The notes below the pieces were generated by a model, which worked only from the letters and a program-made list of their open reading frames with translations, had not been told where the DNA came from and made no database searches. From Nitrospirota bacterium (GTDB lineage Bacteria; Nitrospirota; UBA9217), in assembly GCA_963790205.1 (NCBI GenBank), contig CAWBNQ010000011.1, positions 32,001 to 96,000 of the forward strand: a DNA stretch of 64,000 bases. The letters are read 5' to 3'. The position numbers were made by a program, and so were the translations under genes. Numbering within the stretch: the stretch's first letter is position 1; the number at the start of each line of letters is the position of its first letter. Positions 16,632 to 57,866 of this stretch are shown piece by piece.

Positions 16632-16733
16632 GCAAATTGCAAATTTTAAATTGCAAAATGGGGAATAGCCTTATGCCATAGCATCTCTTTCCTCTATTTT
16701 GAATTTTGCACTTTATACTTTACAATTTGCAAT
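16632..16733. repeat. Heptamer inverted-arm intergenic element
   Basis: GCAAATT GCAAATT TTAAATT GCAAAAT ... ATTTTGA ATTTTGC ACTTTAT ACTTTAC AATTTGC. Confidence 0.75.
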
Positions 16734-16789
16734 CGCACGATTCACGCTACAATGCCAAGTTTTTATGAAAAATAACACAGGAGGTCTTC

Positions 16790-18226
16790 GTGAGAATATT
16801 ACTCGTTAAACCGAACCCGCAGCTTCTGGTAGCAAAGCGCCTGCAGGAGGGGTTTCTGCATCTTGAGCCGCTTGAACTTGAGATGGTCGCTGCCGGCGCG
16901 CCGTCCGAGGACGAGGTCGTGATCCTGGACCTGAGTTTCGAGAAAGACCCGGTCCTGGGCTTTCAGGAGAAGGTCCGCGCCTTTGCTCCGCAGATCGTCG
17001 GCTTCACCGGCTACAGCAGCCAGTCCGGTCTGGTCAAGAGCCTTGCCGCGCTCGTCAAACAGCACGACCCCGCGATCGTGACCATTGTCGGCGGCACGCA
17101 CGCGACGATCATTCCCGCGGATTACACGGTGAACTGCGACAGCCTCGACCTCATCGTGCGCGGCGAAGGCGGCACCGTGTTCGGCGAGATCCTCAGGCGC
17201 TTCAAGAACAAGGAACCGCTGGCGTTCGGCGATGCCGTGCTCTCGCCCAAGGCCGCTGATTTCGCGGAGAAGGCGGCCGGACCGCCGCCGGAGTTCCCTC
17301 CCGTGGACCAGATCCCCCGGGCGCGCCGGGAGCTCGTTGACCGGTCCCGGTATTTCTGCGTCTGGACCTCGAGCACGGAAAAGAAGCTCGACACGATCTT
17401 CCCGCGCACGGCAAGCATGCGCACGTCAACGGGCTGCGCCTACACATGTTCCTTCTGCGTGGTGCACTACCTGATGCGCGGCAAGTATCTCCAGCGCCGG
17501 CCCGAGGACGTGGTGGACGAGATCGCCAAGGTCCCCGAGGACCATATTTACTTTGTCGATGACGAGACCTTTCTGAACAAGGACCGTTTGACCAAGATCG
17601 CGAATCTGCTGATCGAACGCGGGATCAAGAAGAAGTACATCAGCTGGGCCCGCGCCGACACGATCGTGAAATATCCCGAGCTCTTCAGGCTCTGGAAGCA
17701 GGTGGGCCTGAGCGTGGTCTACGTGGGGCTCGAAGCCATGGTCGGGTCACGGCTCGATAAATACAAAAAACGGACAAGCGTCGATACGAACCGCAAGGCC
17801 GTGGAGTTCCTGAAAGAGATCGGGATCACGCTCCATGCGAGCTTCATGGTGGACCCCGACTTCTCGGTCCAGGACTTCAAAGACCTTGAAAAAGAGATCA
17901 TGAAGGTCTGCCCGGCCGAGGTGACCTTCACGGTCTTCTCGCCCTCGCCGGGGACCGATCTCTGGAAACAGCATAAGGACGACTACATCTGCGATCCGTA
18001 CCTGAACTACGACTGCATGCACACGATCCTTCCCACGACGCTGAACATGAACCTGTTCTATGCCCACTTCGCGAAACTGTCGCGGGTCGCCCTTCAGGCG
18101 AACCCGCTCAGGGTGAACAAGGTCAGGGTCCCGTTCCGGGAGACGCTTAAGATCATCTACCTCGGAACGCGGTATATCTTCGCCATGCGGAACATCTACA
18201 AGGACTATTTGCCGAAGAAAACATGA
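16790..18226 (+). CDS. B12-binding domain radical SAM protein
   Basis: EPLELE, IVGGTHAT, GEG, STGCAYTCSFC; GGAGG RBS; GTG start. Confidence 0.9.
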   Translation: MRILLVKPNPQLLVAKRLQEGFLHLEPLELEMVAAGAPSEDEVVILDLSFEKDPVLGFQEKVRAFAPQIVGFTGYSSQSGLVKSLAALVKQHDPAIVTIVGGTHATIIPADYTVNCDSLDLIVRGEGGTVFGEILRRFKNKEPLAFGDAVLSPKAADFAEKAAGPPPEFPPVDQIPRARRELVDRSRYFCVWTSSTEKKLDTIFPRTASMRTSTGCAYTCSFCVVHYLMRGKYLQRRPEDVVDEIAKVPEDHIYFVDDETFLNKDRLTKIANLLIERGIKKKYISWARADTIVKYPELFRLWKQVGLSVVYVGLEAMVGSRLDKYKKRTSVDTNRKAVEFLKEIGITLHASFMVDPDFSVQDFKDLEKEIMKVCPAEVTFTVFSPSPGTDLWKQHKDDYICDPYLNYDCMHTILPTTLNMNLFYAHFAKLSRVALQANPLRVNKVRVPFRETLKIIYLGTRYIFAMRNIYKDYLPKKT

Positions 18227-19650: not shown

Positions 19651-19662
19651 CCGAAGAAATTT

Positions 19663-19760
19663 TCTCGCAAAGCTCGCCAAGTTCGCTAAGAGAAGCAAGA
19701 CCTTTGGTTTAAAGCCAGGATTTAAAGATTTTCTTTGCGCCCTTTGCGTGCTCCGCGAGA
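19663..19760. repeat. Nonamer inverted-arm intergenic element
   Basis: CTCGCAAAG CTCGCCAAG TTCGCTAAG ... CTTTGCGCC CTTTGCGTG CTCCGCGAG. Confidence 0.75.
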
Positions 19761-19804
19761 GACGCCTTTGTTTTTTGCTTCATCGGTCTTAAGGATATTA
19801 AATA

Positions 19805-21238: not shown

Positions 21239-21348
21239 TCGAACTTATTTCATACCCGTGTCAGTTTAGATCAAATGTCACAGGCGCTGCAAGAAATTTC
21301 TTGACAGCAATGCGGCACTTAGGGTAAGGTAAGACCGTAAACACGAAT

Positions 21349-22051: not shown

Positions 22052-22177
22052 CAGGGTCCAAGGGTCCAGTAGCCAGGGTACAGGAAAAGCAAATACCTGG
22101 ACCCCGGAACCTGGCCCCTGAAAGCAGGGTCAAGAGTCGCAAATAACTGGACCCTGGCCCCCGGACCCTGGCCCCTT
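22052..22177. repeat. Heptamer inverted-arm element (CAGGGTC family)
   Basis: CAGGGTC CAAGGGTC CAGTAGC CAGGGTA ... CCTGGAC CCCGGAA CCTGGCC ... GGACCCT GGCCCCC GGACCCT GGCCCCT. Confidence 0.75.
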
Positions 22178-23133: not shown

Positions 23134-23152
23134 ATTCAGAAAAAATTTCTTG

Positions 23153-23222
23153 GCCGCAAAAAGGCACAAGAGACGCAAGAAAAAGACAGTTCTCTTTTGC
23201 GAATTTTGCGCATCTTTGCGGC
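23153..23222. repeat. Nonamer inverted-arm element, copy 1
   Basis: GCCGCAAAAAGGCACAAGAGACGCAAGAA ... TTTTGCGAATTTTGCGCATCTTTGCGGC. Confidence 0.8.
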
Positions 23223-23238
23223 AAAAAAAGGCCCCTTT

Positions 23239-24501
23239 ATGAATCTTCTCATTAAAAACGGTCACGTGATCGACCCGGCGAACAAAGTCGATGAGAAACT
23301 CGACGTTCTCGTCACTGACGGGAAGATCGCCAAGCTTGGAAAGCCGGGATCGATATCGGCAAACGGCGCTCAGGTCATCGATGCTTCCGGCAAGCTTGTC
23401 GTGCCGGGCCTTATCGACATGCACGTGCATCTCCGGGAACCGGGGTTCGAGTATAAAGAAACGATCGCGACCGGCACGGCCGCGGCGAGGGCCGGAGGGT
23501 TCACCTCGGTCTGCTGCATGCCGAACACCAATCCGGTGAACGATAGCCGCTCCGTCACCGAATTCATCCTTGCCCAGGCGAGAAGCGCATCGGCCCGGGT
23601 TTTCCCCATTGGCGCTATCACCAAAGGCTCGAAAGGCGAGGAACTGACCGAAATGGCCGAGCTTCACACCGCAGGCTGTTTCGCGGTCTCGGACGACGGC
23701 AAACCGCTGATGAATGCGGCGATCATGCGCCGGGCCATGGAGTATTCAAGGATCTTCGACCTGCTCGTGATCTCCCACTGCGAGGACAGCTCTCTTTCGG
23801 GCAATGGGGTAATGAACGAAGGCGTTGTTTCAACCGAGCTGGGGCTCCGGGGCATCCCGCGCTCAGCGGAGGATGTGATGACCGGACGGGACATCTCGCT
23901 TGCCGAGCTTACGGGCTGCCGGCTCCATATCGCTCATGTGAGCACTGCGGGATCTGTCCGGCTCATCCGCGATGCGAAATCCCGGGGCGTGAAGGTCACT
24001 GCCGAGACCTGCCCGCACTACTTTTCTTTGACCGAAGAGGCCGTGCGGGGGTACAATACCATGGCAAAAATGAACCCCCCGCTCCGCACCGCGGACGACG
24101 TGACTGCGATCAAGCAGGGCCTGAAGGACGGGACCATCGACGTGATCGCCACGGACCACGCGCCCCATGCGCTGGACGAGAAGTCGGGCGAGTTCGATTA
24201 TGCGCCCTTCGGCGTTGCAGGCCTCGAAACGGCTCTCGGGCTCACGCTCAAGCTGGTGAACGAGGGGGCCCTTTCTCTCTCCGAGGTGGTCCGAAAACTC
24301 ACGAACAATCCCGCATCGATCTTCAAGATAGAAGCGGGAACGCTTACTGCCGGTTCGGATGCGGACATCACGATCATCGACCCAGACATCGAGTGGACCG
24401 TGGATGCGTCGGCGTTCAAGTCAAAATCCAGGAATACACCGTTCAACGGATGGAAATTGAAGGGGAAGGCGGTGCAGACGATCGTGGGAGGAAGAATTTA
24501 G
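23239..24501 (+). CDS. pyrC: Dihydroorotase
   Basis: [29 protein letters not shown]. Confidence 0.96.
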
Positions 24502-25382
24502 TGCGGCGTCCGGAGTCCGGAGCTCGTAGTAGAGCGATACCCGCTATTCTGTTTGTGATACTGGCCGCAGTTTCTTCTTTTGCCGCCCAGGACCAGCAGA
24601 TACAGCAGAAGCTCATTGCTCTCGAAAAAATTCAGGGGAAATTCAGTTTCGTCGTGGTCGGAGACAACCGCTCGGGTGATGATACCTATAAAAAGATCGT
24701 TTCCATGATCGTGGAGCGCAAACCCGATTTTGTCGTCAATACCGGCGATATGATAGCGACCCCGGGCAGCAAGCGGGATTGGGCAAAGTTCTGGGAAATG
24801 TCGAAACCCATTACCGTTCCATACTTCCTGACCGTGGGAAATCATGACGCGCATCCGAAGGTCCCGTTGAGCGAAAAGACATATAAGCAGGAGGTGGACC
24901 TTCCCGGCAACGAGCTTTATTATTCTTTTCTCGCAGGCAACTCGCTCTTCATCGTACTCGATTCTTATCTTGATGACCAGGAAAAGAAAATTACCGGAGA
25001 GCAGTATGCATGGCTCGAAGGCGTGCTCTCGCGTTCACAACAGAAGCACAAGTTCGTATTCCTGCATCATCCCTTGTATACCGATGAGGGGAAGGGGCAT
25101 CATGCTCACGACAGTATCGACAGGTATCCGGACGGCAGGGACAGGCTTGAGGCCCTCTTTGCGAAGTTCAAGGTAAATGCGGTGTTCGCGGGACATGAAC
25201 ATTATTATGAACGGCGGTCCACTGACGGGATCATACATATCATCACCGGCGGAGGCGGCGCGCCGATCTATGATAAAGAAGAGTATGGAGGGTTCAACCA
25301 TTTTGTTCAAGTGACCGTGGACGGCGACAAGGTAAACGGGGAAGTCGTGGACATCAGCGGAAAAGTAAGAGACAGGTTTTAG
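24501..25382 (+). CDS. Secreted metallophosphoesterase (calcineurin-like)
   Basis: GDNR, TGDM, GNHD, FLHHP, GHEH; N-terminal signal-like stretch. GTG start inferred. Confidence 0.85.
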
Positions 25383-25419
25383 TGCGGAGTTCGGAGCGGC
25401 AAGGGAAGGTAATCTGAAG

Positions 25420-26544: not shown

Positions 26545-26548
26545 TTTT

Positions 26549-26645
26549 CACGCGGAGACGCGGAGAACGCGGAGTTGAAAAAGGTGAATTTGCATTACGG
26601 GTTCTGAATCCTTTTTCTCCGCGCACTTCGCGCTTCCGCGGGAGA
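26549..26645. repeat. 8/9-mer inverted-arm element
   Basis: CACGCGGAG ACGCGGAG AACGCGGAG ... CTCCGCGCA CTTCGCGC TTCCGCGGGAGA. Confidence 0.75.
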
Positions 26646-26657: not shown

Positions 26658-27563
26658 ATGGTTTTAGTGCTTTCAAAAGAAGAACTTGATGGGCGGATCG
26701 AGGCTGCCTACCTGCTCCTCGAATCCTGCCGCGTCTGCCCGCGCGAATGCGGGGTCAACCGGCTGAAGAACGATAAGCTCGGTTTCTGCAGGTCGGGTCT
26801 GAACCCGGTCATATCCAGCGTGAGCCCGCATCACGGCGAGGAGCCGCCGCTTTCCGGGATCAAAGGCTCGGGTACGATATTTTTTACCAACTGCAATCTC
26901 CGGTGCGTATACTGCCAGAACTATCCCATCAGCCAGATGGGGACTGGCGCGGAACGGACGACCGGAGAGCTTGCCTGCCAGATGCTTTGGCTGCAGGAAC
27001 AGGGCTGCCATAACCTGAACCTCGTAACGCCTACGCACTTCATGCCGCAGATTCTGAAGGCGCTCGGCATTGCCAGGGAACGGGGTTTCAATCTCCCCAT
27101 TGTATACAACACGAGCGGATATGAATCGATAGAATCGCTCAGGCTGCTCGACGGGATCGTGGACATCTATCTCCCGGACATGCGGTACTCGGATGGCCGG
27201 ATCTCATTGAGATATTCGATCGCGCCGCATTATCCCGAGATCAATTGCGCAGCGATCAAGGAAATGTACCGGCAGGTCGGCAATCTCGTGATCGATGAGA
27301 ACGGGATCGCGAAGCGGGGACTCATCGTACGGCACCTGATTTTGCCCGGCGGGTTGTCCGGCACCGAGAAGATCATGAAGTTCCTCGCAGAGGAAATCTC
27401 GAAAGACGTGTATATCAGCCTCATGTCCCAGTACTTTCCGGCATATAAGGCGGGGGAGCATGGCGAGCTCAACCGCCGCATTACCGAGAAAGAATATGAT
27501 GCGGCTTATGACATTAAGATGAAATATGGATTGAAGAACGGCTGGGTGCAGGAGTTTGAGTAA
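26658..27563 (+). CDS. PflX-like radical SAM protein
   Basis: CRVCPRECGVNR, HHGEEPPLSG, CNLRCVYCQN. Confidence 0.9.
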   Translation: MVLVLSKEELDGRIEAAYLLLESCRVCPRECGVNRLKNDKLGFCRSGLNPVISSVSPHHGEEPPLSGIKGSGTIFFTNCNLRCVYCQNYPISQMGTGAERTTGELACQMLWLQEQGCHNLNLVTPTHFMPQILKALGIARERGFNLPIVYNTSGYESIESLRLLDGIVDIYLPDMRYSDGRISLRYSIAPHYPEINCAAIKEMYRQVGNLVIDENGIAKRGLIVRHLILPGGLSGTEKIMKFLAEEISKDVYISLMSQYFPAYKAGEHGELNRRITEKEYDAAYDIKMKYGLKNGWVQEFE

Positions 27564-27601
27564 GTTCGGAGTTCGGAGTCCAGAGTTCGAAGTTCAGAGT
27601 T
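27563..27601. repeat. Single heptamer tract
   Basis: AGTTCGG AGTTCGG AGTCCAG AGTTCGA AGTTCAG AGTT. Confidence 0.7.
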
Positions 27602-27614
27602 GAGGAAGGGATAG

Positions 27615-30904
<3,290 letters not shown>

Positions 30905-31387: not shown

Positions 31388-32228
31388 GCTGCACACGGCA
31401 AAAATACTGTCACACCTGCCCGCAGGCAGAGGGTTCTACCGCCTTGTTCTCAAGGCCCCGGAAACGGCCGCTGCCGCGCTTCCGGGCCAGTTCGTCATGC
31501 TCAGGGTATCGGAGAACCTGGACCCGCTCCTTGCCCGTCCCTTCGGCATCTCATCCGTTCCCTCAAGATCATCCATCGAAATAATCTATCGCGTTGTCGG
31601 CAGAGGGACCGCTCTGCTTACGCGTAGGTCGGCGGGACAAGAGCTGAGCGTGCTCGGTCCGCTCGGGAAGGGTTTTCCCATGCCGGGTAAAGACACGACG
31701 CCGGTCCTCGTGGGCGGCGGAAGCGGTTTTCCCCCGCTCCACTTTCTCGCGCAGCGCGCCGGCTCGCGCGCCCATTTCTTCATCGGCTCAAGAAATAAGG
31801 AATGTCTTCCGCCCGCAAGCATCATAAAAAGCTTCAGGGATGTCACTTTCAGGGTGCATATCGCGACCGAAGACGGGAGTACGGGCGTTCGCGGGATGTC
31901 TACCGACATCCTGAATGCATTTTTGTCGAAGACGGAGAACAAGACCCGTCTGGCGATCTATGTCTGCGGACCCCATGCCATGCTCGCGGCAGTGAGCAGG
32001 ATCGCCGAAGAACATTCGATCCCCTGTTACGTTTCAATGGAAGAACGCATGGCCTGCGGCCTTGGGGCCTGCATGGGCTGCTCGGTCCCGATAAAGGCCG
32101 GCGGGTACAAGCGGGCGTGCAAGGAAGGACCGGTGTTCGATTCGAGAGTGATCGATTGGAGCGAGCAGGTGTTTCTGAAGGTAAGAAGGCAGGAAGGTGG
32201 GAAGGCGAGCAAGGCGCGGAACAAATAA
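31374..32228 (+). CDS. pyrK: Dihydroorotate dehydrogenase electron transfer subunit
   Basis: PGQFVML, RPFGI, GPLGKGF, EERMACGLGACMGC...CKEGPVF; TTG start after AGGAG. Confidence 0.92.
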   Translation: MPSSRLHTAKILSHLPAGRGFYRLVLKAPETAAAALPGQFVMLRVSENLDPLLARPFGISSVPSRSSIEIIYRVVGRGTALLTRRSAGQELSVLGPLGKGFPMPGKDTTPVLVGGGSGFPPLHFLAQRAGSRAHFFIGSRNKECLPPASIIKSFRDVTFRVHIATEDGSTGVRGMSTDILNAFLSKTENKTRLAIYVCGPHAMLAAVSRIAEEHSIPCYVSMEERMACGLGACMGCSVPIKAGGYKRACKEGPVFDSRVIDWSEQVFLKVRRQEGGKASKARNK

Positions 32229-32280
32229 TCCGAAATCCTGATCCACACAAGCCTGGAAGCAAAACGGGCAAGACTTTTTG

Positions 32281-32364
32281 GCCGCGAAGATGCGCAAAAT
32301 TCGCAAAAAGTTTAAACCCTTTAAATCGAGTGCTTTTCTTGCGCTTTTTGTGCCTTTTTGCGGC
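32281..32364. repeat. Nonamer inverted-arm element, copy 2 (opposite orientation to copy 1)
   Basis: GCCGCGAAGATGCGCAAAATTCGCAAAA ... TTCTTGCGCTTTTTGTGCCTTTTTGCGGC. Confidence 0.8.
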
Positions 32365-32458
32365 TAAACGATTTTATTTTCAACACGTGTTTATCCGCTT
32401 GCGTTTTGGTAATAGCCGGGCATGTCCATCCGTGGCAAACAGGGTTTATTGTAATGTC

Positions 32459-35983: not shown

Positions 35984-35985
35984 GG

Positions 35986-36053
35986 GAATTGCAGATTGCG
36001 GAATGCGGATTGCGAATTAAAAATCCAAAATCTACAATCTAAAATCCGAAATT
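35986..36053. repeat. Heptamer inverted-arm element
   Basis: GAATTGC AGATTGC GGAATGC GGATTGC ... AAATCCA AAATCTA CAATCTA AAATCCG. Confidence 0.8.
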
Positions 36054-39179: not shown

Positions 39180-39353
39180 ATGAATTCCAATGGGCCGATT
39201 GCGCATATTGCAGAAGCCGGACGAGTTTACCTGCTTTCGGACCATTTGCACGGAACCGCCGAACGCGCCGCGAAATTCGCCGCTGAATTCGGCTGCGCCG
39301 GATGGAGAAGGCTCGCCGGGCTGCAGCATGAAACACGGAGTGATAATGCCTGA
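39180..39353 (+). pseudogene. Relic 5' fragment of a second cas3 HD domain
   Basis: 57-codon ORF MNSNGPIAHIAEAGRVYLLSDHLHGTAERAAKFAAEFGCAGWRRLAGLQHE..., collinear with the Cas3 N-terminus pattern AH...HL..A..FA..FG....LAGL.HD. Confidence 0.7.
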
Positions 39354-41511: not shown

Positions 41512-41534
41512 TTACATAAAGGAAAGGAGGAAGC

Positions 41535-42188
41535 ATGCATAACGGTCCACCGCTTGAAGTTAAGGTTTGGGGAGAGTTTGCCTGTTTCACCAGGCCTGAA
41601 ATGAAGGTCGAGCGCGTCAGCTATCCCGTCATGACGCCATCGGCCGCGCGAGGCGTTCTGGAGGCTGTTTTCTGGAAACCAGAATTTTCGTGGCAGGTGA
41701 GAGAAATTCACGTGCTTAATGAAGTACGACACTTTTCCATCCTGCGTAACGAGGTAAACAGCAAGATGGCAACGTCCTCAGCCAGAAGCATGATTGAAAA
41801 AGGGGGCAACTACTTTGCCGAAGAAGATAGGGCTCAGCGACATACCTTGGCGTTGCGAGACGTGGCATACCTGATTAAGGCCGACGTGGTTCTGCGACCG
41901 CACGCCACTGAAGACGTGGCTAAGTACCGCGACCAGTTCCGCAGACGGGTAACGAGCGGCAAATGCCACCATACCCCATACCTTGGATGCCGGGAGTTTG
42001 CAGGATTCTTCGGCGACCCGGATGGAAGTGAACGCCCCTTCAACCTGACCGACGATTTGGGCCTCATACTGTTCGATCTCGACTACGAGCAGGGCACCTC
42101 AGGTCGGGGGAAGCCAAGGTTCTTTTCCGCACGACTTGAAGGCGGCATTCTCAAGGTGCCTTCTGAGCTGTATAGAAAGGAGGGGTGA
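41535..42188 (+). CDS. cas5c: Type I-C Cas5 (Cas5d)
   Basis: ACFTRPEMKVERVSYPVMTPSAARG, PYLGCREF. Confidence 0.97.
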   Translation: MHNGPPLEVKVWGEFACFTRPEMKVERVSYPVMTPSAARGVLEAVFWKPEFSWQVREIHVLNEVRHFSILRNEVNSKMATSSARSMIEKGGNYFAEEDRAQRHTLALRDVAYLIKADVVLRPHATEDVAKYRDQFRRRVTSGKCHHTPYLGCREFAGFFGDPDGSERPFNLTDDLGLILFDLDYEQGTSGRGKPRFFSARLEGGILKVPSELYRKEG

Positions 42189-42190
42189 CC

Positions 42191-43936: not shown

Positions 43937-43954
43937 AAACCAAGGAGGTAATCC

Positions 43955-44866
43955 ATGAATACAGTAATTAATGATGTGGCTAAGCGCCACGATTTTGTCC
44001 TGTTGTTCGACGTGACCGATGGTAATCCAAACGGTGATCCTGACGCGGGCAATCTGCCCCGTGTAGACCCGGAGACTATGCAGGGACTTGTCACGGATGT
44101 TTGTATTAAGCGCAAGGTGCGGAATTATGTGGATATGGCCAAGGGAATGAAAATATATGTTCAGAACAGAGGAATTCTTGCTGGCGAACAGAAAAAAGCC
44201 TTTGAGGCTGTTGCTGCAAAAGAAGGGAAAAAGGCTGAACCGAGCGATTCCCCAAATGAGGATGCTAAAAAATGGATGTGTGAGAACTATTATGATGTGC
44301 GGATGTTCGGTGCTGTTATGACAACTGGAAAGACAAAGGAAAGCAAGAAAAAGTGGAACTGCGGCCAAGTTCGTGGACCCCTCCAATTCACATTTGCTCG
44401 TTCTATCGATCCGATTGTGCCGCTTGATCTCTCTATTACCAGGGTTGCACTGACCAATGCTGATGACACCGGCGGCCAAGATGATGACGATAAGGCCTCA
44501 AGTGGTCAGATGGGGCGAAAGGCTCTGCTTCCATATGGTCTCTATAAGGCTTACGGTTTCTTTACCCCTGCATTTGCCGAAGACACCTGCGTGGCAGCGA
44601 CCGATTTAGAAATCTTTTGGGCGGCATTGCAGAACATGTGGGATATTGATCGGTCCGCTAGTCGGGGCATGATGGCTTGCCGGGGCATTTATATTTTCAG
44701 TCACGATGATAAGTACGGCAAGGCTCCGGCGCAGAGTCTATTGGAAAGGGTTAATGTAGTGCGCAAGGAAGGTGTAGAAGCGCCTCGCGCCTTCTCTAAT
44801 TATTCAGTTAAAGTGAACGAGGCTAACATGCCCCAGGGAGTTACCTTAACGAAGCTGGCTGTATGA
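43955..44866 (+). CDS. cas7c: Type I-C Cas7/Csd2
   Basis: GNPNGDPDAGNLPR, TDVCIKRKVRN, DVRMFGAV, GQVRGP. Confidence 0.97.
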   Translation: MNTVINDVAKRHDFVLLFDVTDGNPNGDPDAGNLPRVDPETMQGLVTDVCIKRKVRNYVDMAKGMKIYVQNRGILAGEQKKAFEAVAAKEGKKAEPSDSPNEDAKKWMCENYYDVRMFGAVMTTGKTKESKKKWNCGQVRGPLQFTFARSIDPIVPLDLSITRVALTNADDTGGQDDDDKASSGQMGRKALLPYGLYKAYGFFTPAFAEDTCVAATDLEIFWAALQNMWDIDRSASRGMMACRGIYIFSHDDKYGKAPAQSLLERVNVVRKEGVEAPRAFSNYSVKVNEANMPQGVTLTKLAV

Positions 44867-45498
44867 ACTCGCAGGAGAAACAAGAAGCCGATCCTGTCAT
44901 GGTCTCCGCCTTGGAGCACTACAGCTACTGCCCGCGCCAGTGCGCGTTGATCCATCTTGAGCACGTATGGGACGAGAACGTGTACACTATGCGCGGTCGC
45001 GACACGCACGAGCGCGTGGACGAGGCGTCTTCGCGCGCCGAGGCGGGCGTGCGCGTGGAGCGGGCTTTGCCAATCTGGTCAAAGCGGCTGAACCTTACCG
45101 GCAGGGCGGACGTCGTGGAGTTCCACGGCGACATGCCATATCCTGTCGAGTACAAGTCCGGGAAGCATCGAAAGGGCCGGCACGAGGCGCTTCAACTCTG
45201 CGCCCAGGCAGTGTGTCTTGAAGAGATGCTGGGGGTGAAGATTGAGAAGGGCGCTTTGTACTGGCACGGGTCGCGAGAACGGAAGGAGATCGCATTGACC
45301 GATGCTTTAAAGGCCCAAGTCTGCGAGATCGCTGAAGCGGTGCATAAGATGATTGTAGAGAACCGAATCCCGCCACCGGTGAATGACGAACGGTGCCGGG
45401 ACTGTTCGCTCAGGGAAGCGTGTATGCCTGAGGTCGTGGATAATAAAATGAAAACCAAGCGTGCGGTCAATGATCTTTTTGCTGTCGAAAAGAGTTAG
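44863..45498 (+). CDS. cas4: Cas4 exonuclease
   Basis: YCPRQCAL, ADVVEF, PVEYK, QLCAQ, CRDCSLREAC. Confidence 0.96.
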   Translation: MNSQEKQEADPVMVSALEHYSYCPRQCALIHLEHVWDENVYTMRGRDTHERVDEASSRAEAGVRVERALPIWSKRLNLTGRADVVEFHGDMPYPVEYKSGKHRKGRHEALQLCAQAVCLEEMLGVKIEKGALYWHGSRERKEIALTDALKAQVCEIAEAVHKMIVENRIPPPVNDERCRDCSLREACMPEVVDNKMKTKRAVNDLFAVEKS

Positions 45499-45513
45499 GC
45501 ATGGAGGCTGACA

Positions 45514-46548
45514 ATGAAACAACTCCTCAATACTCTTTATGTTATGACCCAGGGGGCCTATCTTTCTCTCGACCATGAAACGCTGAAAGTAGAAGTGGAA
45601 GGCAAGATTCAGATGCAGGTGCCGCTTCATCACCTCGGGTCCATTGTCGTCATGGGAAACGTGATGATCAGCCCTTTTCTCCTGGGCCGTTGCGGCGATG
45701 ACGGCAGGTCCGTGGCAATCCTGGATCGTAACGGCCAGTTCAAATGCCGAATGGTGGGAAAGACGAGCGGCAACGTGCTTCTGCGCCAGGCTCAGTATGA
45801 ATTCGTGAGAGACGACGGAAAGGCGAGGGAGATCGCCAGGAATATCGTAGCCGGGAAGGTGAAGAACTCGCGCGAAGTCCTCATGCGCGCGGCGCGCGAG
45901 ACAACAGTACAGCCGGAGTCGGATTCGCTCAGACGGGCAACGGAAACGCTCGCCGGCGCATTGTTCCGCTTGAAGGACGCTCCCGATGTGGATGCGATCC
46001 GGGGGTATGAAGGCGAGTCGGCGAACGTCTATTTTCAAGTCTTCGACCTGATGGTGAAGGAAGACGCACGTGAAGCCTTCAAGATGAACGGAAGAACCAG
46101 AAGACCGCCGCTTGACCGGATGAACGGTCTCCTGTCGTTTCTCTATACGCTCCTGCTGCACGATTGTATTTCTGCGGCGGAAGGCGTCGGGCTTGATTCG
46201 CAGATGGGTTTTCTGCACGCTCTCCGTCCGGGCAGGCCGTCGCTCGGCCTTGACTTGATGGAAGAAATGCGCGCGCTGCTTGCGGACAGGCTTGCCCTTA
46301 CCCTGATCAACCGAAAGCAGGTGTCGGCATCGGACTTCGAAGTGCGGCCCGGCGGCGCGACCTATCTGAACGACGAGGGGAGAAAAACGGTGGTTGTCGC
46401 GTATCAGAAGCGAAAGCAGGAAGAATTCCATCATCCCATACTAGATGAACAGGTCCCTTTCGGCCTGATTCCTCATGTCCAGGCGCGGTTGTTAGCGCGA
46501 CACTTACGCGGCGACATCGAGGAGTACGCTCCGTTCTTGTATTCATAA
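45514..46548 (+). CDS. cas1: Type I-C Cas1
   Basis: [31 protein letters not shown]. Confidence 0.97.
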
Positions 46549-46562
46549 CGCTGAGGTGGTAT

Positions 46563-46853
46563 ATGTGGATCGTTGTTGCGTATGATGTTCGCACCGATGA
46601 GGCGAAGGGGAGAAAAAGGCTTCGACGCGTGGCTCAGGTGTGCAAGGACTTCGGACAGCGGGTGCAGAAGTCGGTCTTCGAGTGTCAGGTCGATGATATG
46701 AAGTTTGAAGAGCTTCGGCGAAGGTTATTGCGGGAGATCAACGATGAGGAAGATAATTTACGTCTCTATCGGCTTACAGAGCCAAGAGAACAGCACGTCG
46801 AGACCTATGGTCTGAGCCGCACGGTCTTCTATGATGAGCCGCTTATCGCATAG
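46563..46853 (+). CDS. cas2: Cas2
   Basis: [28 protein letters not shown]. Confidence 0.97.
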
Positions 46854-47019
46854 CGCGAACGTGGTGCGATGGTGAAAAGGCGGGGTATTTCGCGGATGAA
46901 TGAAATCAAATGGTTTACGGGGGTGTCGGAAGTTTTTATGCTTTGCTCAGGCATGTATAGCCCCTTTCGTGGAAAAGGGTGTGTAAGTATTTGTTTTCTG
47001 TCGCCCATAGAGGGAGACA
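46854..47019 (+). promoter_or_regulatory. CRISPR leader
   Basis: Non-coding segment between cas2 and the first repeat, starting CGCGAAC...TTCGCG as often seen in I-C leaders. Confidence 0.7.
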
Positions 47020-50000
47020 GTAGCGCCCCTCAGCGATGAGGGGCGAGGATTGAAACGCGTTGTCTCCAGCCAACTAATTAAAGATTTCGTGTAGCGCCCC
47101 TCAGCGATGAGGGGCGAGGATTGAAACATTGTAAAGCTCCGCGAGCCGTTGAAGTACATCCCGTAGCGCCCCTCAGCGATGAGGGGCGAGGATTGAAACT
47201 ACTCGGACAACGGCGCGGGCAACACGGCCAAGGTGTAGCGCCCCTCAGCGATGAGGGGCGAGGATTGAAACTCTTAAGGTGCGCCCGATTTCAAACGGCT
47301 CGGGGTAGCGCCCCTCAGCGATGAGGGGCGAGGATTGAAACACCCGTATAACGCGGGTCTTTACTGCTGATTGCGGGTAGCGCCCCTCAGCGATGAGGGG
47401 CGAGGATTGAAACTTTTGCATGGGAGGTTGCTGATACAGCGACCATCGTAGCGCCCCTCAGCGATGAGGGGCGAGGATTGAAACATTACAGGATCGGCGT
47501 GGCGTCTTTGTCTTTGGCGTAGCGCCCCTCAGCGATGAGGGGCGAGGATTGAAACCAGTCGTCCTGCGTGTCGACGGCCACGTTCAGGTAGCGCCCCTCA
47601 GCGATGAGGGGCGAGGATTGAAACTCCCATGAGAGATTTTACGTTGTTGTCTATTTCCGTAGCGCCCCTCAGCGATGAGGGGCGAGGATTGAAACGCGTA
47701 TCAGCTCATGACCAAGTCCGGGACTCCGAGTAGCGCCCCTCAGCGATGAGGGGCGAGGATTGAAACTTCGGAGACGCATCGAGCGCGCGCGCCAGGGCCG
47801 TAGCGCCCCTCAGCGATGAGGGGCGAGGATTGAAACACCTTGTTCGGGTTGTTTCAGCATATGTGCTCCAGTAGCGCCCCTCAGCGATGAGGGGCGAGGA
47901 TTGAAACGATTTTATAGGTCTAACCATCGCGTCCACTCCGTCGTAGCGCCCCTCAGCGATGAGGGGCGAGGATTGAAACCTTAATCTGCATCCCTTCGGG
48001 ATCGGACCGGTTGGTAGCGCCCCTCAGCGATGAGGGGCGAGGATTGAAACCCGAGTACCGGGGCTATGCCCGCTATCGTAGACCGTAGCGCCCCTCAGCG
48101 ATGAGGGGCGAGGATTGAAACCCATGAAGGGACCCATGCCTGCGCCTGTGCCATGGTAGCGCCCCTCAGCGATGAGGGGCGAGGATTGAAACATTTACCT
48201 CACCCCCACGGTCGGCGCGGCGAAGGCGTAGCGCCCCTCAGCGATGAGGGGCGAGGATTGAAACAACGTATCTCCGGACTGCACGGCTCGCGATGAGCTG
48301 TAGCGCCCCTCAGCGATGAGGGGCGAGGATTGAAACCCGGATACTTTGCGGTCTCCCTCGAAATAATCCGTAGCGCCCCTCAGCGATGAGGGGCGAGGAT
48401 TGAAACGATTTCTGCGTCGCCCCACTTTTCAAATCCTTCGAGTAGCGCCCCTCAGCGATGAGGGGCGAGGATTGAAACACGCAAAAGCCCACGTCTTCCC
48501 CGACGCCATCCGTAGCGCCCCTCAGCGATGAGGGGCGAGGATTGAAACATTAACATGGACGAAATTAAAATTATGCTTATCCGTAGCGCCCCTCAGCGAT
48601 GAGGGGCGAGGATTGAAACATTGGACTTGATCCCGATATGGATGAAAGGATTTTGTAGCGCCCCTCAGCGATGAGGGGCGAGGATTGAAACTTATAAATC
48701 GGTATGCAAAGTATACAATTAACCCTGTAGCGCCCCTCAGCGATGAGGGGCGAGGATTGAAACACTCTCGAAAAAAACAAAAAGACCGGCGCTTCCGTAG
48801 CGCCCCTCAGCGATGAGGGGCGAGGATTGAAACAATTCACCGATACATCAACCATATCCGGTACCCGTAGCGCCCCTCAGCGATGAGGGGCGAGGATTGA
48901 AACCGTAATGGCCTTGGTCTTGAGATTGACGACCACGCCGTAGCGCCCCTCAGCGATGAGGGGCGAGGATTGAAACATGTACGCCGTGTCTTCGTACCCG
49001 CTGCCGATGGTAGCGCCCCTCAGCGATGAGGGGCGAGGATTGAAACTCTAGTAGTGCAGCCGGAAACGATCAGGGCTTATGTAGCGCCCCTCAGCGATGA
49101 GGGGCGAGGATTGAAACGAGTTCCTGGTAGCATGTCCGCTCATCCGTTTGTGTAGCGCCCCTCAGCGATGAGGGGCGAGGATTGAAACACGTGGTGCACG
49201 GCGTCGGCGATGCTGATCGAGCGTAGCGCCCCTCAGCGATGAGGGGCGAGGATTGAAACACTCATGATCCAGCGCATGGCCAAGCGGAATTGCGTAGCGC
49301 CCCTCAGCGATGAGGGGCGAGGATTGAAACTCTTCTTCGAAGATCGATCTCCTGCCCCACGTCGTAGCGCCCCTCAGCGATGAGGGGCGAGGATTGAAAC
49401 TCTTCTTCGAAGATCGATCTCCTGCCCCACGTCGTAGCGCCCCTCAGCGATGAGGGGCGAGGATTGAAACATGCGCTCGTTGTACACCGCACGGTTTATA
49501 ATCGTAGCGCCCCTCAGCGATGAGGGGCGAGGATTGAAACATGCGCTCGTTGTACACCGCACGGTTTATAATCGTAGCGCCCCTCAGCGATGAGGGGCGA
49601 GGATTGAAACTCAGATAACTTGTGGTTTCTGTTCGATCTTAGTAGTAGCGCCCCTCAGCGATGAGGGGCGAGGATTGAAACCTTTCCGATGCATGTCATA
49701 ACCAGCGGTTCGTGGTAGCGCCCCTCAGCGATGAGGGGCGAGGATTGAAACCTGTTCCGGCCTCGTGAGCTCGATCTGCTTGAAGTAGCGCCCCTCAGCG
49801 ATGAGGGGCGAGGATTGAAACAATCTCGACCGCACAAACGGTTCGATGTCCGAGGTAGCGCCCCTCAGCGATGAGGGGCGAGGATTGAAACCGACAAGGT
49901 AGAGGCAGTACGGAGTTTGGCATTGTAGCGCCCCTCAGCGATGAGGGGCGAGGATTGAAACAAGGATTCGATGAGCGCCATCTCACAGAACCTGTTGTAG

Positions 50001-50603
50001 CGCCCCTCAGCGATGAGGGGCGAGGATTGAAACTCGAAAACGCTTTGTTCTCAAGAATAACGTTGCTGTAGCGCCCCTCAGCGATGAGGGGCGAGGATTG
50101 AAACTGTTATATAGGCCAGATCGACGATCCAGGATGATAGTAGCGCCCCTCAGCGATGAGGGGCGAGGATTGAAACATATTTACGCGACGGGAACAATGG
50201 GGCGATCAGGTAGCGCCCCTCAGCGATGAGGGGCGAGGATTGAAACAGTCTGCATGGTCTGATTTACCGACTGGAGCTGCGTAGCGCCCCTCAGCGATGA
50301 GGGGCGAGGATTGAAACATTGGTTGTTTTTGATGAGCCTCAAAAGTATTATAGTAGCGCCCCTCAGCGATGAGGGGCGAGGATTGAAACAGCGATCCTTT
50401 CGCCTCATCGACCGACCTCACGGTAGCGCCCCTCAGCGATGAGGGGCGAGGATTGAAACTGTTATATAGGCCAGATCGACGATCCAGGATGATAGTAGCG
50501 CCCCTCAGCGATGAGGGGCGAGGATTGAAACTTTCTTATCGGTGTCCTTCTTCGGTCCGTACTTCCGTAGCGCCCCTCAGCGATGAGGGGCGAGGATTGA
50601 AAC
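47020..50603 (+). CRISPR. Type I-C CRISPR array: 51 identical 37-bp repeats, 50 spacers (32-36 nt, 47 unique)
   Basis: Repeat GTAGCGCCCCTCAGCGATGAGGGGCGAGGATTGAAAC with 9-bp stem CGCCCCTCA/TGAGGGGCG and 3' ATTGAAAC. Counted by hand. Confidence 0.98.
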
Positions 50604-52367: not shown

Positions 52368-52445
52368 AGACGATGGACGAGGGACGAGGGACGAGAGGCG
52401 AGGGATGAAGGGCGAAAGACGATGGACGAGGGACGACAGGCGAAG
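52368..52445. repeat. Left heptamer arm (GACGAGG/GACGATG) before the four-helix-bundle gene
   Basis: GACGATG GACGAGG GACGAGG GACGAGA GGCGAGG GATGAAG GGCGAAA GACGATG GACGAGG GACGACA GGCGAAG. Confidence 0.85.
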
Positions 52446-52450
52446 GAACC

Positions 52451-52834
52451 ATGACAATTTCGAAGAGAATTAACAGCGTAAGAGATCTGGAAGTTTACAG
52501 GCTGGCCTTTGAGGCTGCCATGGAAATATACAACGTCTCCAAGGATTTTCCAGCTGAAGAAAAATATTCGTTGACTGACCAGATACGAAGGTCTTCCCGC
52601 GCAGTGTGCGCCAATCTCTCTGAGGGATGGAGAAAAAGACGGTATAAAGCAGTGTTTATAAACAAGCTCTCTGACTCAGCACAGGAAGCCGCTGAAACTC
52701 AAACGTGGCTGGAATTTGCGTTGCGATGCGGTTATATTGATAATGAAACGTTCGACAGGCTGGACGAGCAATACGAGCATGTTTTTGCCATGCTGCGCAC
52801 TATGGAGAAAAAAGCCGATTCATTCTGTAAATAA
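52451..52834 (+). CDS. Four helix bundle protein (23S rRNA-IVP / bAvd-like family)
   Basis: RDLEVYRLA, FPAEEKYSLTDQIRRSSRAVCANLSEGW, EAAETQTWL. Confidence 0.92.
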   Translation: MTISKRINSVRDLEVYRLAFEAAMEIYNVSKDFPAEEKYSLTDQIRRSSRAVCANLSEGWRKRRYKAVFINKLSDSAQEAAETQTWLEFALRCGYIDNETFDRLDEQYEHVFAMLRTMEKKADSFCK

Positions 52835-52847
52835 ATTAGGAAAGAAA

Positions 52848-53005
52848 AGACGATAGGCGATGGTTGAGGTATACGTTCGTCGTCCCAGCGAGCGCAGCGA
52901 GCGTTCGTCTGTCGTCCATCGTTTACGGGGCAGTCGTCCGTCATCCTAGTGAGCAGAACGAACGATCGTCTCTCGTGAAAAGGGCGGTCATCCATCGTCC
53001 ATCGT
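52848..53005. repeat. Right, mainly complementary arm (TCGTCCA units) after the four-helix-bundle gene
   Basis: TTCGTCGTCCC, TTCGTCTGTCGTCCATCGT, GTCGTCCGTCATCC, ATCGTCTCTCGT, GTCATCCATCGTCCATCGT. Confidence 0.75.
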
Positions 53006-53021
53006 ATAAGAGGGGGTAGCA

Positions 53022-53420: not shown

Positions 53421-53461
53421 TAACTAAGGAATTAAATTCTTCTCAAAATGGAAAGAACTTT

Positions 53462-53565
53462 GCCGCAAAAAGGCACAAAAAGCACAAGAGTATCGTCTTA
53501 ACTTTTTGCGAATTTTGCGCTTCTTTGCGGTTAAATCGTTTTGGCTCCGGCTTGTCCGGGTCAGT
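53462..53565. repeat. Nonamer inverted-arm element, copy 3, with terminal segment
   Basis: GCCGCAAAAAGGCACAAAAAGCACAAGA ... TTTTGCGAATTTTGCGCTTCTTTGCGG, then CGTTTTGGCTCCGGCTTGTCCGGGTCAG. Confidence 0.8.
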
Positions 53566-53651
53566 TGGTAATGCTCTCATAATAATATTGAGCATTACTT
53601 CATTGTCATTTGATATTTGGAATTTTCCCCCTCATATGGTAGTATCCCGCC

Positions 53652-54695: not shown

Positions 54696-54703
54696 AAAGA
54701 GAG

Positions 54704-54789
54704 GCAGGCTTCATGATGCATGACTGAAAAGCGTACCTATGAATTTATGGCATCGTCATGGATTGTGCATCAGGTATCATGGATCATGC
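54704..54789. repeat. Degenerate heptamer inverted-arm element
   Basis: GCAGGCT TCATGAT GCATGAC ... GTCATGG ATTGTGC ATCAGGT ATCATGG ATCATGC. Confidence 0.55.
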
Positions 54790-54811
54790 GCCGCACGAAC
54801 GAGGAAAAACC

Positions 54812-55501: not shown

Positions 55502-55588
55502 AAGTCCGGAAGTTGAGAAGATGGGACGATACGAAGATAAGGCTCCGGGTATTCAAACTTCACAGCATCTCATCTACGGCGGTTATCT

Positions 55589-55732
55589 TAACGGGTTGTT
55601 GAAAAACACCGATACGTCATTGCGAGGAGCGCTTTCCGCGACGCGGCAATGACGAACTTATTGATTTGATGAAATGCGGGATTGCTTCGCTGCGCTCGCA
55701 AAGACGGCAAAATATTTTTTCAACAGCCGCTA
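55589..55732. mobile_element. MITE-like element with a nested palindromic repeat
   Basis: Terminal inverted repeats TAACGGGTTGTTGAAAAA / TTTTTCAACAGCCGCTA; internal CGTCATTGCGAG...CTCGCAAAGACG palindrome. Confidence 0.65.
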
Positions 55733-56140: not shown

Positions 56141-56186
56141 GCATCAACTTAACACACTCGCTTTGGCCCCGTCAATCTGTTTTTTC

Positions 56187-56215
56187 TTGACAAATTTTTT
56201 CAATCAACGTAATCT
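56187..56215 (+). promoter_or_regulatory. Sigma-70 promoter of pheST
   Basis: TTGACA-17 nt-TAATCT. Confidence 0.65.
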
Positions 56216-56227
56216 TGTCCGCATTGT

Positions 56228-57793
56228 ATGGCTACTTCCGACCTCTTAAAACTGCTCGAAAGCCTTCACCCGCTCGAAAACAAAGTCCTCCTCTGCTTCG
56301 ACCGCGGCGAAAACCTGTCCGCGGCGGATATCCTCAAGTCATCGGGGCTCGACGAATCCCGCCTGGACATGGCCTCGGGCTGGCTCCAGTCCAAGGGTCT
56401 GCTCCGCGTAAAGGACGAGTCCGTCACGTCTTTTGTCTCTCTCACTGAGACCGGCCGGGCTTACCTCGAAAAGGGCACGCCCGAGATGCGAATCATCAAT
56501 TCGCTCAGGAAGGGCAAACAGTTCACGGTCAAGGACGTGATCCAGTCCTGGGGCATGGAGCCGACGGAGGTAAGCTCTGCCGTCGGCGCGCTCAAGGAAA
56601 CCGGCGCGGTCCGCATCGTTCAGGGCGGCATCCTGGAGCTTGTTCCCGGAGCCGACATCTCAGCGTATGAATTTTTGACCGATCTTGTAAAAATCGTTGC
56701 CGGACATGAGCAGGCTGAACTTCCCACATTCTCTGAAGTCCATCAGACCGCTCTCCAGGCAAACTTTCACAAACGCGGCAAAGCAAAAGGCATCTTTCGA
56801 ATCACGGAAAAAAAGAACCGCTTCTTCGGCCTTACGTCCGACGGGCAGGATTTCCTCCGTTTGCTTAAGGAACGGGGCTCGGTCACCGAAGAGGCTTCAG
56901 TGCTCACGCCCGAGATGCTGAAGAACGGTACCTGGAAGAATAAAAAATTCCGCGCCTATAATATATCACTCAACCCTCCTCGCCAGAGCATCGGCAGGAA
57001 GCATCCTTACAAAGAGTTTCTCGATTTCGTGAAATATAAATTCATCGGCATGGGTTTTGAGGAGATGCGCGGTCCGCTCGTGGAGAACGAGTTCTGGGAC
57101 ATGGACGCATTGTTCATGCCGCAGTTCCATCCGGCCCGGAACATCCACGACGTGTACTTCATAAAAGAGCCTGCCTCGTCCGGCAAGATCGAAGAGCCGT
57201 TCGGCAAGCGGGTAGCCGCGGCCCACAAGGACGGCGGCAAGACCGGCTCGACGGGATGGCGCTATCCTTTTGACCTCGAGCGCGCCAAGCGGCTGATCCT
57301 CCGGAGCCAGGGCACGGCCGTATCAGCCCGCACCCTCGCGTCGGGGCCGAAGATACCGGGAAAGTATTTCTCCATCGCGCGCTGTTTCCGCTACGACGCG
57401 GTGGATGCGACGCATGCGCCCGATTTTTACCAGGTCGAGGGTATTGTGATAGGCGAGGAGATCAATTTCAAGACGCTGCTGGGGCTGCTGAAGCTCTTCG
57501 GGCAGGAGGTCGCCAGGGCCGCAGAATTTCAGTTCAGGCCCGCGTACTTCCCCTTTACCGAACCGTCGGTCGAGCTGCACGTAAAGCATCCCGAGCTGGG
57601 ATGGATGGAACTCGGCGGCGCGGGTATTTTCCGGCCCGAGGTCACCATGCCGCTCGGCGTGCACGCGCCGGTCATTGCCTGGGGCCTGGGGCTCGACCGG
57701 ATGGCCATGGTGGCCCTCGGGATACAGGACATCCGCGACCTGTTCTCAAAGGACCTTGATTTTATAAGGACAAAGAAAATACAACTGGGATAA
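56228..57793 (+). CDS. pheS: Phenylalanine-tRNA ligase alpha subunit, archaeal/eukaryotic type
   Basis: 521 aa with long N-terminal extension; DALFMPQFHPARNIHD, FRYDAVDATH, YFPFTEPS, GAGIFRPE, AWGLGLDRMAM. Confidence 0.93.
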   Translation: MATSDLLKLLESLHPLENKVLLCFDRGENLSAADILKSSGLDESRLDMASGWLQSKGLLRVKDESVTSFVSLTETGRAYLEKGTPEMRIINSLRKGKQFTVKDVIQSWGMEPTEVSSAVGALKETGAVRIVQGGILELVPGADISAYEFLTDLVKIVAGHEQAELPTFSEVHQTALQANFHKRGKAKGIFRITEKKNRFFGLTSDGQDFLRLLKERGSVTEEASVLTPEMLKNGTWKNKKFRAYNISLNPPRQSIGRKHPYKEFLDFVKYKFIGMGFEEMRGPLVENEFWDMDALFMPQFHPARNIHDVYFIKEPASSGKIEEPFGKRVAAAHKDGGKTGSTGWRYPFDLERAKRLILRSQGTAVSARTLASGPKIPGKYFSIARCFRYDAVDATHAPDFYQVEGIVIGEEINFKTLLGLLKLFGQEVARAAEFQFRPAYFPFTEPSVELHVKHPELGWMELGGAGIFRPEVTMPLGVHAPVIAWGLGLDRMAMVALGIQDIRDLFSKDLDFIRTKKIQLG

Positions 57794-57800
57794 TAAAAAA

Positions 57801-57866
57801 AGGGGACAGGGTCCGGGGTACAGAAAATGTGAAACCTGAACCCTGACGACCGACCCCTGAACCCTG
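57801..57866. repeat. Heptamer inverted-arm element (CAGGGTC family)
   Basis: AGGGGAC AGGGTCC GGGGTAC ... CCTGAAC CCTGACG ACCGACC CCTGAAC CCTGA. Confidence 0.7.

Follow-up and report, generated by a model that had tools for sequence, protein, structure and literature searches.

The 64,000-nucleotide stretch of a Nitrospirota genome considered here (hereafter the window; G000:C11:32001-96000, where G000 is the 4.3 Mb source genome) contains, in the pyrimidine operon and around the queA and pheS genes, a dispersed set of short elements, in which tandem units of 7, 8 or 9 bases are mostly followed, after a loop, by units complementary to them. An earlier note made from the sequence alone had listed more than 15 such places, and all 19 of them do hold a short-period array whose position agrees with the listed coordinate exactly or to a few bases, although those at 25382 and 53600 are weak single arms under the score threshold. 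The observation is real and the elements are widespread in the genome. They are probably selfish DNA micro-cassettes that exist in filled and empty forms, the filled form carrying a small gene between inverted arms and the empty ones being moved in trans by the matching cargo protein.

One arm pair of the window (52369-53005) encloses a four-helix-bundle gene, as the note had perceived. Its 5' arm (52369..52443, + strand), comprising about ten GACGA(G/T)G-type heptamers, begins on the stop codon of a Na/Pi-cotransporter gene; the cargo gene (52451..52834, +) encodes a four-helix-bundle/23S_rRNA_IVP protein of 127 residues (PF05635, TIGR02436) with the XCC0516/Avd fold; and the 3' region (52846..53005, +) consists of a forward stub (52846-52863) and then reverse-complement TCGTCC-type units extending to the ribosome-binding site (RBS) of a UPF0047 gene. 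The other paired elements have no assigned strand. Empty pairs of period 7 are found at 16632..16733 (GCAAATT family), 35985..36052 (GGATTGC / AAAATCC, with a short loop, 3' of a tyrosine recombinase gene), 54708..54790 (GCATGAT family, between queA and the SPOR gene) and 57794..57872 (CAGGGGA / CCCTGAA, between pheS and pheT), and a compound empty element of the same period, of the CAGGGTC family, separates pyrR from pyrB (22053..22176). Those of period 9 lie at 19663..19760 (CGCAAAG-NN family, of the type that accompanies the second cargo, GxxExxY, with a loop homologous to copies on other contigs), at 23146..23229 between pyrB and pyrC (GCCGCAAAAAGGCAC family, which is filled with a GxxExxY gene at locus L018), at 32277..32368 between pyrK and pyrD, and at 53462..53530 between the UPF0047 gene and queA. 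An empty pair of mixed period 8/9 follows carA (26548..26643, CACGCGGAG family), and a degenerate pair of period 8 occupies a convergent junction (55508..55577, GAAGTTGA family).

Single arms, all on the + strand, lie on the stop codons of pyrC (24501..24529, 5'-type, CGGA family), of a metallophosphoesterase gene (25380..25399, weak, CGGA family) and of the gene preceding carB (27563..27604, period 7, AGTTCGG). Two further arms lie in frame within genes, one in the CarB linker (29298..29330) and one of period 8, GAAGG-NNN, at the 3' end of pyrK (32177..32205), while a weak 3'-type arm (53603..53625) is the reverse complement of the CAAAT family.

Arrays and inverted pairs across the genome

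The excess of arrays over chance was estimated against five dinucleotide shuffles of the 3,217 intergenic regions of G000, the genes being called with a purpose-built dicodon model that leaves gap boundaries approximate. Period-7 arrays occur in 275 regions against a shuffled mean of 10.0 (a 28-fold excess), period-8 arrays in 62 against 6.4 (10-fold) and period-9 arrays in 102 against 7.0 (15-fold); period 6 is likewise elevated (48 regions against 6.6), and periods 4 and 5 show no enrichment in these regions. Inverted pairs are found in 244 of 585 array-bearing regions as against 66 of 350 array-free regions at equal hairpin score. The 244 pairs (142 of period 7, 45 of period 8, 52 of period 9 and 5 of period 10) have a median length of 88 bases and a median loop of 28. 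Intrinsic-terminator features are lacking in that a U-tract, whose absence had been noted, accompanies only 7 of 214 pairs and the sense strand has no G·U bias.

The distribution of arrays depends on gap type, with arrays in 324 of 1,956 co-oriented, 25 of 292 convergent and 9 of 269 divergent gaps, the last being avoided. The preference for operonic, co-oriented junctions claimed earlier holds for the most part, but the arms at 29298 and 32177 are in frame in genes and the element at 55507 is convergent. Placement within the gap is polarised: 164 pairs lie nearer the upstream stop codon as against 46, 53 of 71 single 5'-type arms lie within 10 bases of that stop, and single arms are mainly of the purine-rich type on the sense strand (71 against 39). 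Coding sequence contains 40 period-7 arrays where codon shuffles yield none, with examples in carB, valS, purL, hypF, nifEN and cobQ. As about one-sixth of the co-oriented gaps of G000 carry an arm and these arrays lie in coding sequence, the system reshapes both operons and protein linkers.

The architecture is shared, as had been proposed; the units, however, are not unrelated, since they form homologous families and the 5' arms obey a common oriented grammar. The information content of these arms exceeds that of both shuffled and randomly oriented nulls at period 7 (4.0 bits against 3.0 and 3.3, respectively), period 8 (6.6 against 3.9 and 4.7) and period 9 (7.3 against 3.8 and 5.5). In the period-9 unit seven phases are fixed (conservation 0.82-0.98) and two are variable (0.46-0.61), all 16 NN pairs being represented at the variable positions, an alternation that is clear at period 9 and weak at period 7. 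The two arms are not mirror copies: in period-7 elements about 40-55% of variant bases are matched by a complementary base in the other arm. Arms of period 7 have mostly 3-5 units and those of period 9 mostly 2-3, which amounts to about 28 bases; the modal numbers (4 at period 7, 3 at periods 8-9) correspond to a roughly constant 24-28 bases, and a fixed number of units matching a pentamer is not evident.

Cargo proteins and their cognate arms

Two types of cargo occur, the four-helix bundle (TIGR02436, PF05635) and the GxxExxY protein, a PD-(D/E)XK family (TIGR04256, PF13366). G000 has four canonical TIGR02436 loci (one frameshifted) and eight TIGR04256 matches (two partial), in which inverted arms are recognisable by eye; in four longer four-helix-bundle genes (G000:C1:76852, 658769, 770467 and 993051) inverted arrays of 9-10-base units lie both in the open reading frame (ORF) and upstream of it. 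The tests of arm pairing, unit-protein trees, unit number and dN/dS were confined to loci free of stops, N and short flanks; the first used 118 of 119 loci and the tree comparison 67, and the unit-clade test, like those of strand symmetry and cargo co-occurrence below, was performed in the present analysis. In relatives and other phyla together, inverted arms flank 83 of 88 four-helix-bundle loci and all 30 GxxExxY loci, against 23% and 44%, respectively, for cross-locus pairings, and the suspected enrichment of the arrays beside these genes is thus borne out. When the space between paired arms was searched blind for additional cargo families, seven candidates emerged, two of them four-helix-bundle genes and the other five ordinary-looking genes between neighbouring arms; the search was insensitive, as it missed the known GxxExxY copies.

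The arms are sorted by cargo, upstream arms consisting of 7-mers at 25 of 30 four-helix-bundle loci and of 8-10-mers at 23 of 30 GxxExxY loci. A strict correspondence of period and cargo does not hold, because the four-helix-bundle gene L189 has arms of 9-base units and several others have 8-base arms. For pairs at different sites, unit distance falls as protein identity rises (rho -0.39, shuffle minimum -0.165; rho -0.43 in the family-only sample, reached in 0 of 500 shuffles), and units differ by at most one base in 45% of pairs whose proteins are more than 70% identical, as against 1-2% of pairs below 55% (67 loci, 42 distinct sites). This tracking shows co-inheritance and is not by itself co-evolution. 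The cargo clade of the window, for example, retains GACGA-type arms in records of Nitrospirota, Planctomycetota, Omnitrophota, Thermodesulfobacteriota and Margulisiibacteriota. The description of the elements as defined by structure and not by sequence was in this respect half right, as unit sequence follows the clade of the cargo protein. The gene-less elements had been taken for empty versions, and three families of the window do have filled counterparts elsewhere: CGGA at L193 and L204, GCCGCAAAAAG at L018 and CGCAAAG in G000. The CAAAT and GCATGAT families have none among the loci read, and arms at G007:C20 and G013:C32, considered as filled CGGA cassettes, enclose no small cargo gene.

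The cargo genes look to be under selection, judging from a median dN/dS of 0.06, a value biased low by the choice of pairs of at least 78% identity, and from 0.082 for the window protein against its L115 homologue. The best fold matches of the two cargoes are XCC0516/Avd and restriction-endonuclease-like folds. The window protein resembles XCC0516 and BT_0352 (both five-chain entries) and also Avd (TM 0.75, 10% identity); it has no match in annotated phages, and its closest homologue with the same neighbours is in a Nitrospirota metagenome-assembled genome. Residues Q44, E58 and E82 are invariant in the four-helix bundle. The GxxExxY protein, for which a search by sequence found no solved structure, has D62, E72 and K74 invariant in 30 of 30 copies, and this D...E-x-K arrangement, together with a restriction-endonuclease-like fold of middling score (best Z 7.8, root-mean-square deviation 3.2 over 95 residues), makes it a predicted PD-(D/E)XK nuclease. 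Two very large orphan families, TIGR02436 and TIGR04256, gain a defined cognate sequence per clade from the tracking of unit by protein clade, so that binding, cutting and mobility become directly testable.

Among plasmid copies in cyanobacteria, paired heptamer arms are present in four of the six four-helix-bundle loci read. On two plasmids of Nostoc PCC 7120 (L216, L217) the gene has a 3' arm only and stands behind an ISL3 transposase gene, the sequence common to the two plasmids stopping shortly past that arm. A Nostoc edaphicum plasmid (L218) has a filled cassette antisense between nrdA and nrdB, and sense orientation is therefore not obligatory. In the stretch read at L201 (G005:C9) the four-helix-bundle gene is accompanied by 9-base arrays in direct, not inverted, orientation.

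Turnover, copying and the choice between explanations

The earlier expectation of filled, empty and absent states at orthologous junctions is realised, swapped elements being found as well. At 20 + 20 syntenic loci from genomes of the same family the junctions of the window vary in unit and in period, or hold a palindrome of another family or no element at all. Its filled site is filled in none of 15 family loci: L026 has an empty copy of the same GACGA-type unit, L023 an element of another family and L039 a bare gap of 16 bases. The same site is filled in L115, L116, L149 and L166, one of which bears a Betaproteobacteria label that may reflect misbinning. From genus to genus, the in-frame arrays of the CarB linker differ. 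On metagenome contigs the turnover can be followed with increasing distance: a relative of about 99% identity retains the elements of the pyr operon with a single 7-base deletion, one unit of the CAGGGTC element between pyrR and pyrB; at about 95% identity the 53462 element is replaced by 81 other letters; and in a more distant contig the cassette is absent (660 letters reduced to 62) and 465 other letters stand between pheS and pheT.

The abundance of arrays follows that of cargo genes. In 60 genomes of the family the median number of four-helix-bundle-type motif matches per Mb is 0 without the gene and 15.3 with it, and that of the nonamer, GxxExxY-type motif is 0.3 without and 10.6 with; fresh arrays thus all but disappear from genomes in which no cargo gene was found. 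The contrast holds in genus g19, where each motif class has 0-2 matches in the five genomes without cargo, while the seven with cargo have 4-138 matches to the nonamer and 1-191 to the heptamer. The four-helix bundle is also lacking in 13 of the 14 GxxExxY-negative family genomes, a co-loss that suggested its dependence on GxxExxY, which the phylum-wide comparison below rules out; the joint absence in the family and independence elsewhere hint at a host factor or lifestyle admitting or purging both. Within G000, loop-homologous families occupy many unrelated sites, so that whole empty elements have been copied, loops included. In one empty family the loop is inverted relative to asymmetric outer ends (G000:C8:129707 compared with C1:541111), suggesting recombination between the arms.

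How such copying would proceed we infer as follows. In a filled copy, inverted arms of about 28 bases would enclose a four-helix-bundle or GxxExxY gene that lacks a promoter, and the far more numerous empties would be mobilised in trans by the cognate cargo protein. An oligomer of that protein would recognise the fixed part of the repeat unit, either in duplex DNA or in a hairpin extruded from one or other strand. The predicted GxxExxY nuclease would cut DNA itself; the four-helix bundle would either draw in a host enzyme or act as a catalyst by way of Q44, E58 and E82. Insertions would survive only where harmless, that is in the gap between stop codon and RBS, in a protein linker or in an rRNA helix, while slippage would alter unit number and reduce pairs to single arms. 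Two candidate helpers fail to track the arrays: the Y1 transposase is present in 11 of 13 cargo-free genomes, its seven matches in G000 having flanks of other kinds, and the reverse transcriptase domain RVT_1 is not found in the array-rich genomes G010, G018, G047, G049 and G056, is present in 8 of 13 cargo-free genomes and was not seen between arms at any locus read.

An unlikely alternative, the strongest of those weighed, is that the elements are intervening sequences (IVSs) of mRNA, whose arms form a stem in the transcript that RNase III cuts or the four-helix-bundle pentamer binds, tuning operon stability or translation, and which are kept for that purpose. The precedent is the IVS in helix 45 of Coxiella burnetii 23S rRNA, which, in the portion of the paper available, encodes S23p, has tandem heptamers of strain-variable number upstream of the ORF and a 28-bp terminal stem, is cleaved by RNase III, and is sporadic and horizontally acquired (Warrier et al., PMC4990558); likewise, the accessible text on Avd describes pentamers that bind an RNA stem-loop through flipped-out bases (10.1101/2023.10.23.563531). 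The preference for co-oriented gaps, the polarity towards the upstream stop and the purine-rich single arms point the same way, as does the upstream neighbour at the 83 four-helix-bundle loci (66 sense, 11 ambiguous, 3 antisense, 3 with none). Selection for pairing in the transcript, however, should leave more G·U than A·C mismatches on the sense strand. The ratio is 306:298 in empty elements and, in filled cassettes, 132:132 (four-helix bundle) and 25:29 (GxxExxY; 157:161 in total), compared with 66:65 in array-free intergenic hairpins, whereas tRNAs (11:0), terminators (19:3) and, weakly, rRNA (15:9) show the excess. The sense fold is the more stable in just 40 of 83 four-helix-bundle and 11 of 30 GxxExxY cassettes, one junction tolerates unrelated units or none, and copies lie in frame in carB, valS, purL and hypF. 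Loop-homologous empties stand in the same orientation in 33 cases and in opposite orientations in 27, and the G000 pairs show no asymmetry by replication strand, as inferred from a weak GC skew. Balanced mismatches and the occurrence of loop-homologous empties in both orientations favour DNA over RNA, and of the two roles first proposed, mobile or RNA-processing, the former is supported in the shape of filled and empty cassettes, and RNA processing finds no support as a selected function. Effects on the transcript may nonetheless follow, since a C-rich arm left unpaired might invite Rho termination and RNase III, by analogy with Coxiella, may cut such stems as a side effect. For selfish cassettes the polarised placement would act as a filter, with the stop-to-RBS gap as the harmless slot, and a promoter-less cargo would need host transcription.

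A little less probable again is homing or allele replacement at the level of the site, whereby cassettes arrive mainly on the DNA of other cells, by recombination in flanking genes or as passengers of small elements or insertion sequences, and sites are refilled with little copying within the genome. It would account for the near absence of identical paralogues, the sites common to several genera, the replacement of one junction at about 95% identity, the sole recent duplicate, which rides in a shell with an 8-9-base core at both ends, and the Nostoc genes behind ISL3. Against this, each shell motif tested lies beside only 1-3 of the 244 elements, and carriage within an outer inverted-repeat shell is rare; families with homologous loops are spread over many unrelated places of a single genome; and array numbers follow cargo presence.

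That the elements are a neutral by-product, with arrays made by polymerase slippage, palindromes by template switching and small genes trapped by chance, is largely refuted and very improbable: the one-unit deletion in the close relative and the drift of units within a family at old sites such as the junction of pyrC and mpp are compatible with it, and slippage is cited in the part of the discussion of Rehm et al. that is accessible (PMC4692102), but it leaves cargo specificity, the sorting of period by cargo, unit-clade tracking, arms that are not mirror copies, shared loops and the near absence of arrays in cargo-free congeners without explanation. Equally slight is the chance of a VIPR-like guide system in which protomers lock onto the fixed part of the unit and variable bases specify a target, for despite the fixed/variable alternation at period 9 and its 16 NN pairs, the 2-5 units per arm offer 4-8 variable bases, an inverted partner arm is present, and the best fold matches of the cargo are a four-helix bundle or PD-(D/E)XK, apparently not the RAMP fold described for Vipr in the available text.

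Several observations weigh against selfish cassettes moved in trans. Their placement is polarised by transcription, which an RNA role would also predict. Eleven cassette sites among the 67 loci are shared by several genera, which fits old vertical inheritance with loss. The nearest paralogue is mostly 70-85% identical and exceeds 90% in one of 244, which gives no sign of recent self-copying, and the single 97% pair is enclosed in an inverted-repeat shell of another, non-periodic kind; other palindrome families of G000 are equally diverged, and spread may hence be old, imported or error-prone. Target-site duplications of k=3-6 are at shuffle level in 239 elements, a test weakened by the uncertainty of element ends. 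Kin among the 60 genomes are not independent, and there are exceptions in G008 (175 heptamer matches, four-helix bundle not found, 90% complete) and G058 (92 nonamer matches, GxxExxY not found, 65% complete). Of 90 genomes outside the family, 36 have the four-helix bundle, 34 of them without GxxExxY; no helper for this class was found among Y1_Tnp and RVT_1, and we know of no catalytic activity of the four-helix bundle.

Relation to known systems, and neighbouring features

No paper joining arms, empties and cargo was found in a literature search whose coverage lay outside subscription journals; only the pieces are in print, namely the Coxiella 23S IVS, heptamers of Xanthomonas and Nostoc, and partner-less clusters of period 7 and 8. 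The Coxiella 23S IVS is a filled copy of the present kind of element. The ORF-bearing IVSs, which have an S23p/PF05635 protein between inverted repeats, match the filled four-helix-bundle copies only; the present elements are of the same kind but dispersed through mRNA operons, being found at hundreds of mRNA junctions and also within protein linkers. Most of them hold no gene, GxxExxY provides a second cargo family, and the wobble signature of an RNA is absent. The copies of the window lie at mRNA junctions or in ORFs and none in an rRNA helix. The heptamers GGGAATC and GGGGA(C/T)T of Xanthomonas and Nostoc have the same placement and, in the accessible text of Rehm et al. (2015, PMC4692102), are read as G-quadruplex formers with no link to a protein or mobile element; most of the present units cannot form a G-quadruplex, and cyanobacterial plasmid four-helix-bundle genes carry heptamer arms in our data. 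The orphan clusters #156,623 (period 7) and #8,581 (period 8) of Patescibacteriota and Chloroflexota, for which the available part of a genome-language-model survey gives no protein partner (bioRxiv 10.64898/2026.10.21.760802, October 2026), combine an array of n-mers, fixed apart from some variable positions, with a reverse-complement copy after it, and have codirectional neighbours; compared by description, they likely represent the same system.

The closest population logic is that of REPIN/RAYT, in which, as far as the accessible text of Bertels and Rainey (2011, PMC3116915) describes it, short extragenic inverted doublets coexist with a few helper genes flanked by the same repeat, flavours are specific to the helper and singlets are decay products. 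The present system works in this manner but does not belong to that class, since its arms are periodic arrays of 7-10-base units, its copies far more diverged, and its cargo, PF05635 or PF13366 instead of an HUH/Y1 transposase, lies between the two arms and moves between phyla. Miniature inverted-repeat transposable elements of DDE insertion sequences are similarly non-autonomous inverted-repeat copies of a gene-bearing parent; here there is no target-site duplication and no DDE enzyme in the cassette, the ends are degenerate and periodic, and near-identical copies are lacking (1 of 244 above 90% identity). The accessory protein Avd of diversity-generating retroelements has the same fold, and its pentamer reads a stem-loop through bases flipped out between protomers, but the present cassettes contain no reverse transcriptase and RVT_1 does not track the arrays. 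VIPR, in the available description, shares a fixed/variable periodic motif and differs in having a period-5 GGY/NN array of about ten units, whereas here period 5 is not enriched and arms have 2-5 units.

It is possible, at somewhat less than even chances, that these cassettes constitute a new class of prokaryotic mobile DNA without a transposase, recombinase or reverse transcriptase of known type, in which an Avd-like pentamer of 120-residue chains and, in parallel, a minimal PD-(D/E)XK nuclease each read a clade-specific periodic code in the 28-base arms and move their own gene together with hundreds of empties. Should a protein of 120 residues and arms of 28 bases suffice for mobility, this would be among the smallest DNA-moving systems known. 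Cassette spread as DNA would explain the long-puzzling excess of 7-base repeats in bacteria, and one account would then cover ORF-bearing rRNA IVSs, that heptamer excess and the variable in-frame loops of housekeeping enzymes. The heptamers, the 23S IVS with its ORF and the clusters of period 7 and 8 that lack a partner, hitherto treated as separate puzzles, would share a single origin.

Some neighbouring features deserve mention. The 97% pair belongs to a 138-bp composite with an outer non-periodic inverted repeat around a period-9 hairpin, of which G000 has four copies (C3:762887-763024, C5:175181-175318, C5:434843-434987 and C1:605942-606031), two of them 97% identical; the three copies read have an AAG-N2-3-TGA core of 8-9 bases at both ends, as after site-specific integration. 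A non-periodic palindrome of GTCATTGCGAG type (16 motif matches in G000), heavily covered in metagenomes, lies at about 55580-55715 in the window, and this and other palindrome families take the same junctions in relatives. The pheT gene (57876-59574) is split by an apparent frameshift that may be an assembly error, contigs of three sequencing runs being without one base near 58281. Finally, a Type I-C-like CRISPR-Cas locus (cas3, cas5d, csd1, cas7, cas4, cas1, cas2 and array) occupies 39190-50603, a site at which, in relatives spanning it (such as L002, L003, L021 and L030), cca is joined directly to the Na/Pi gene.

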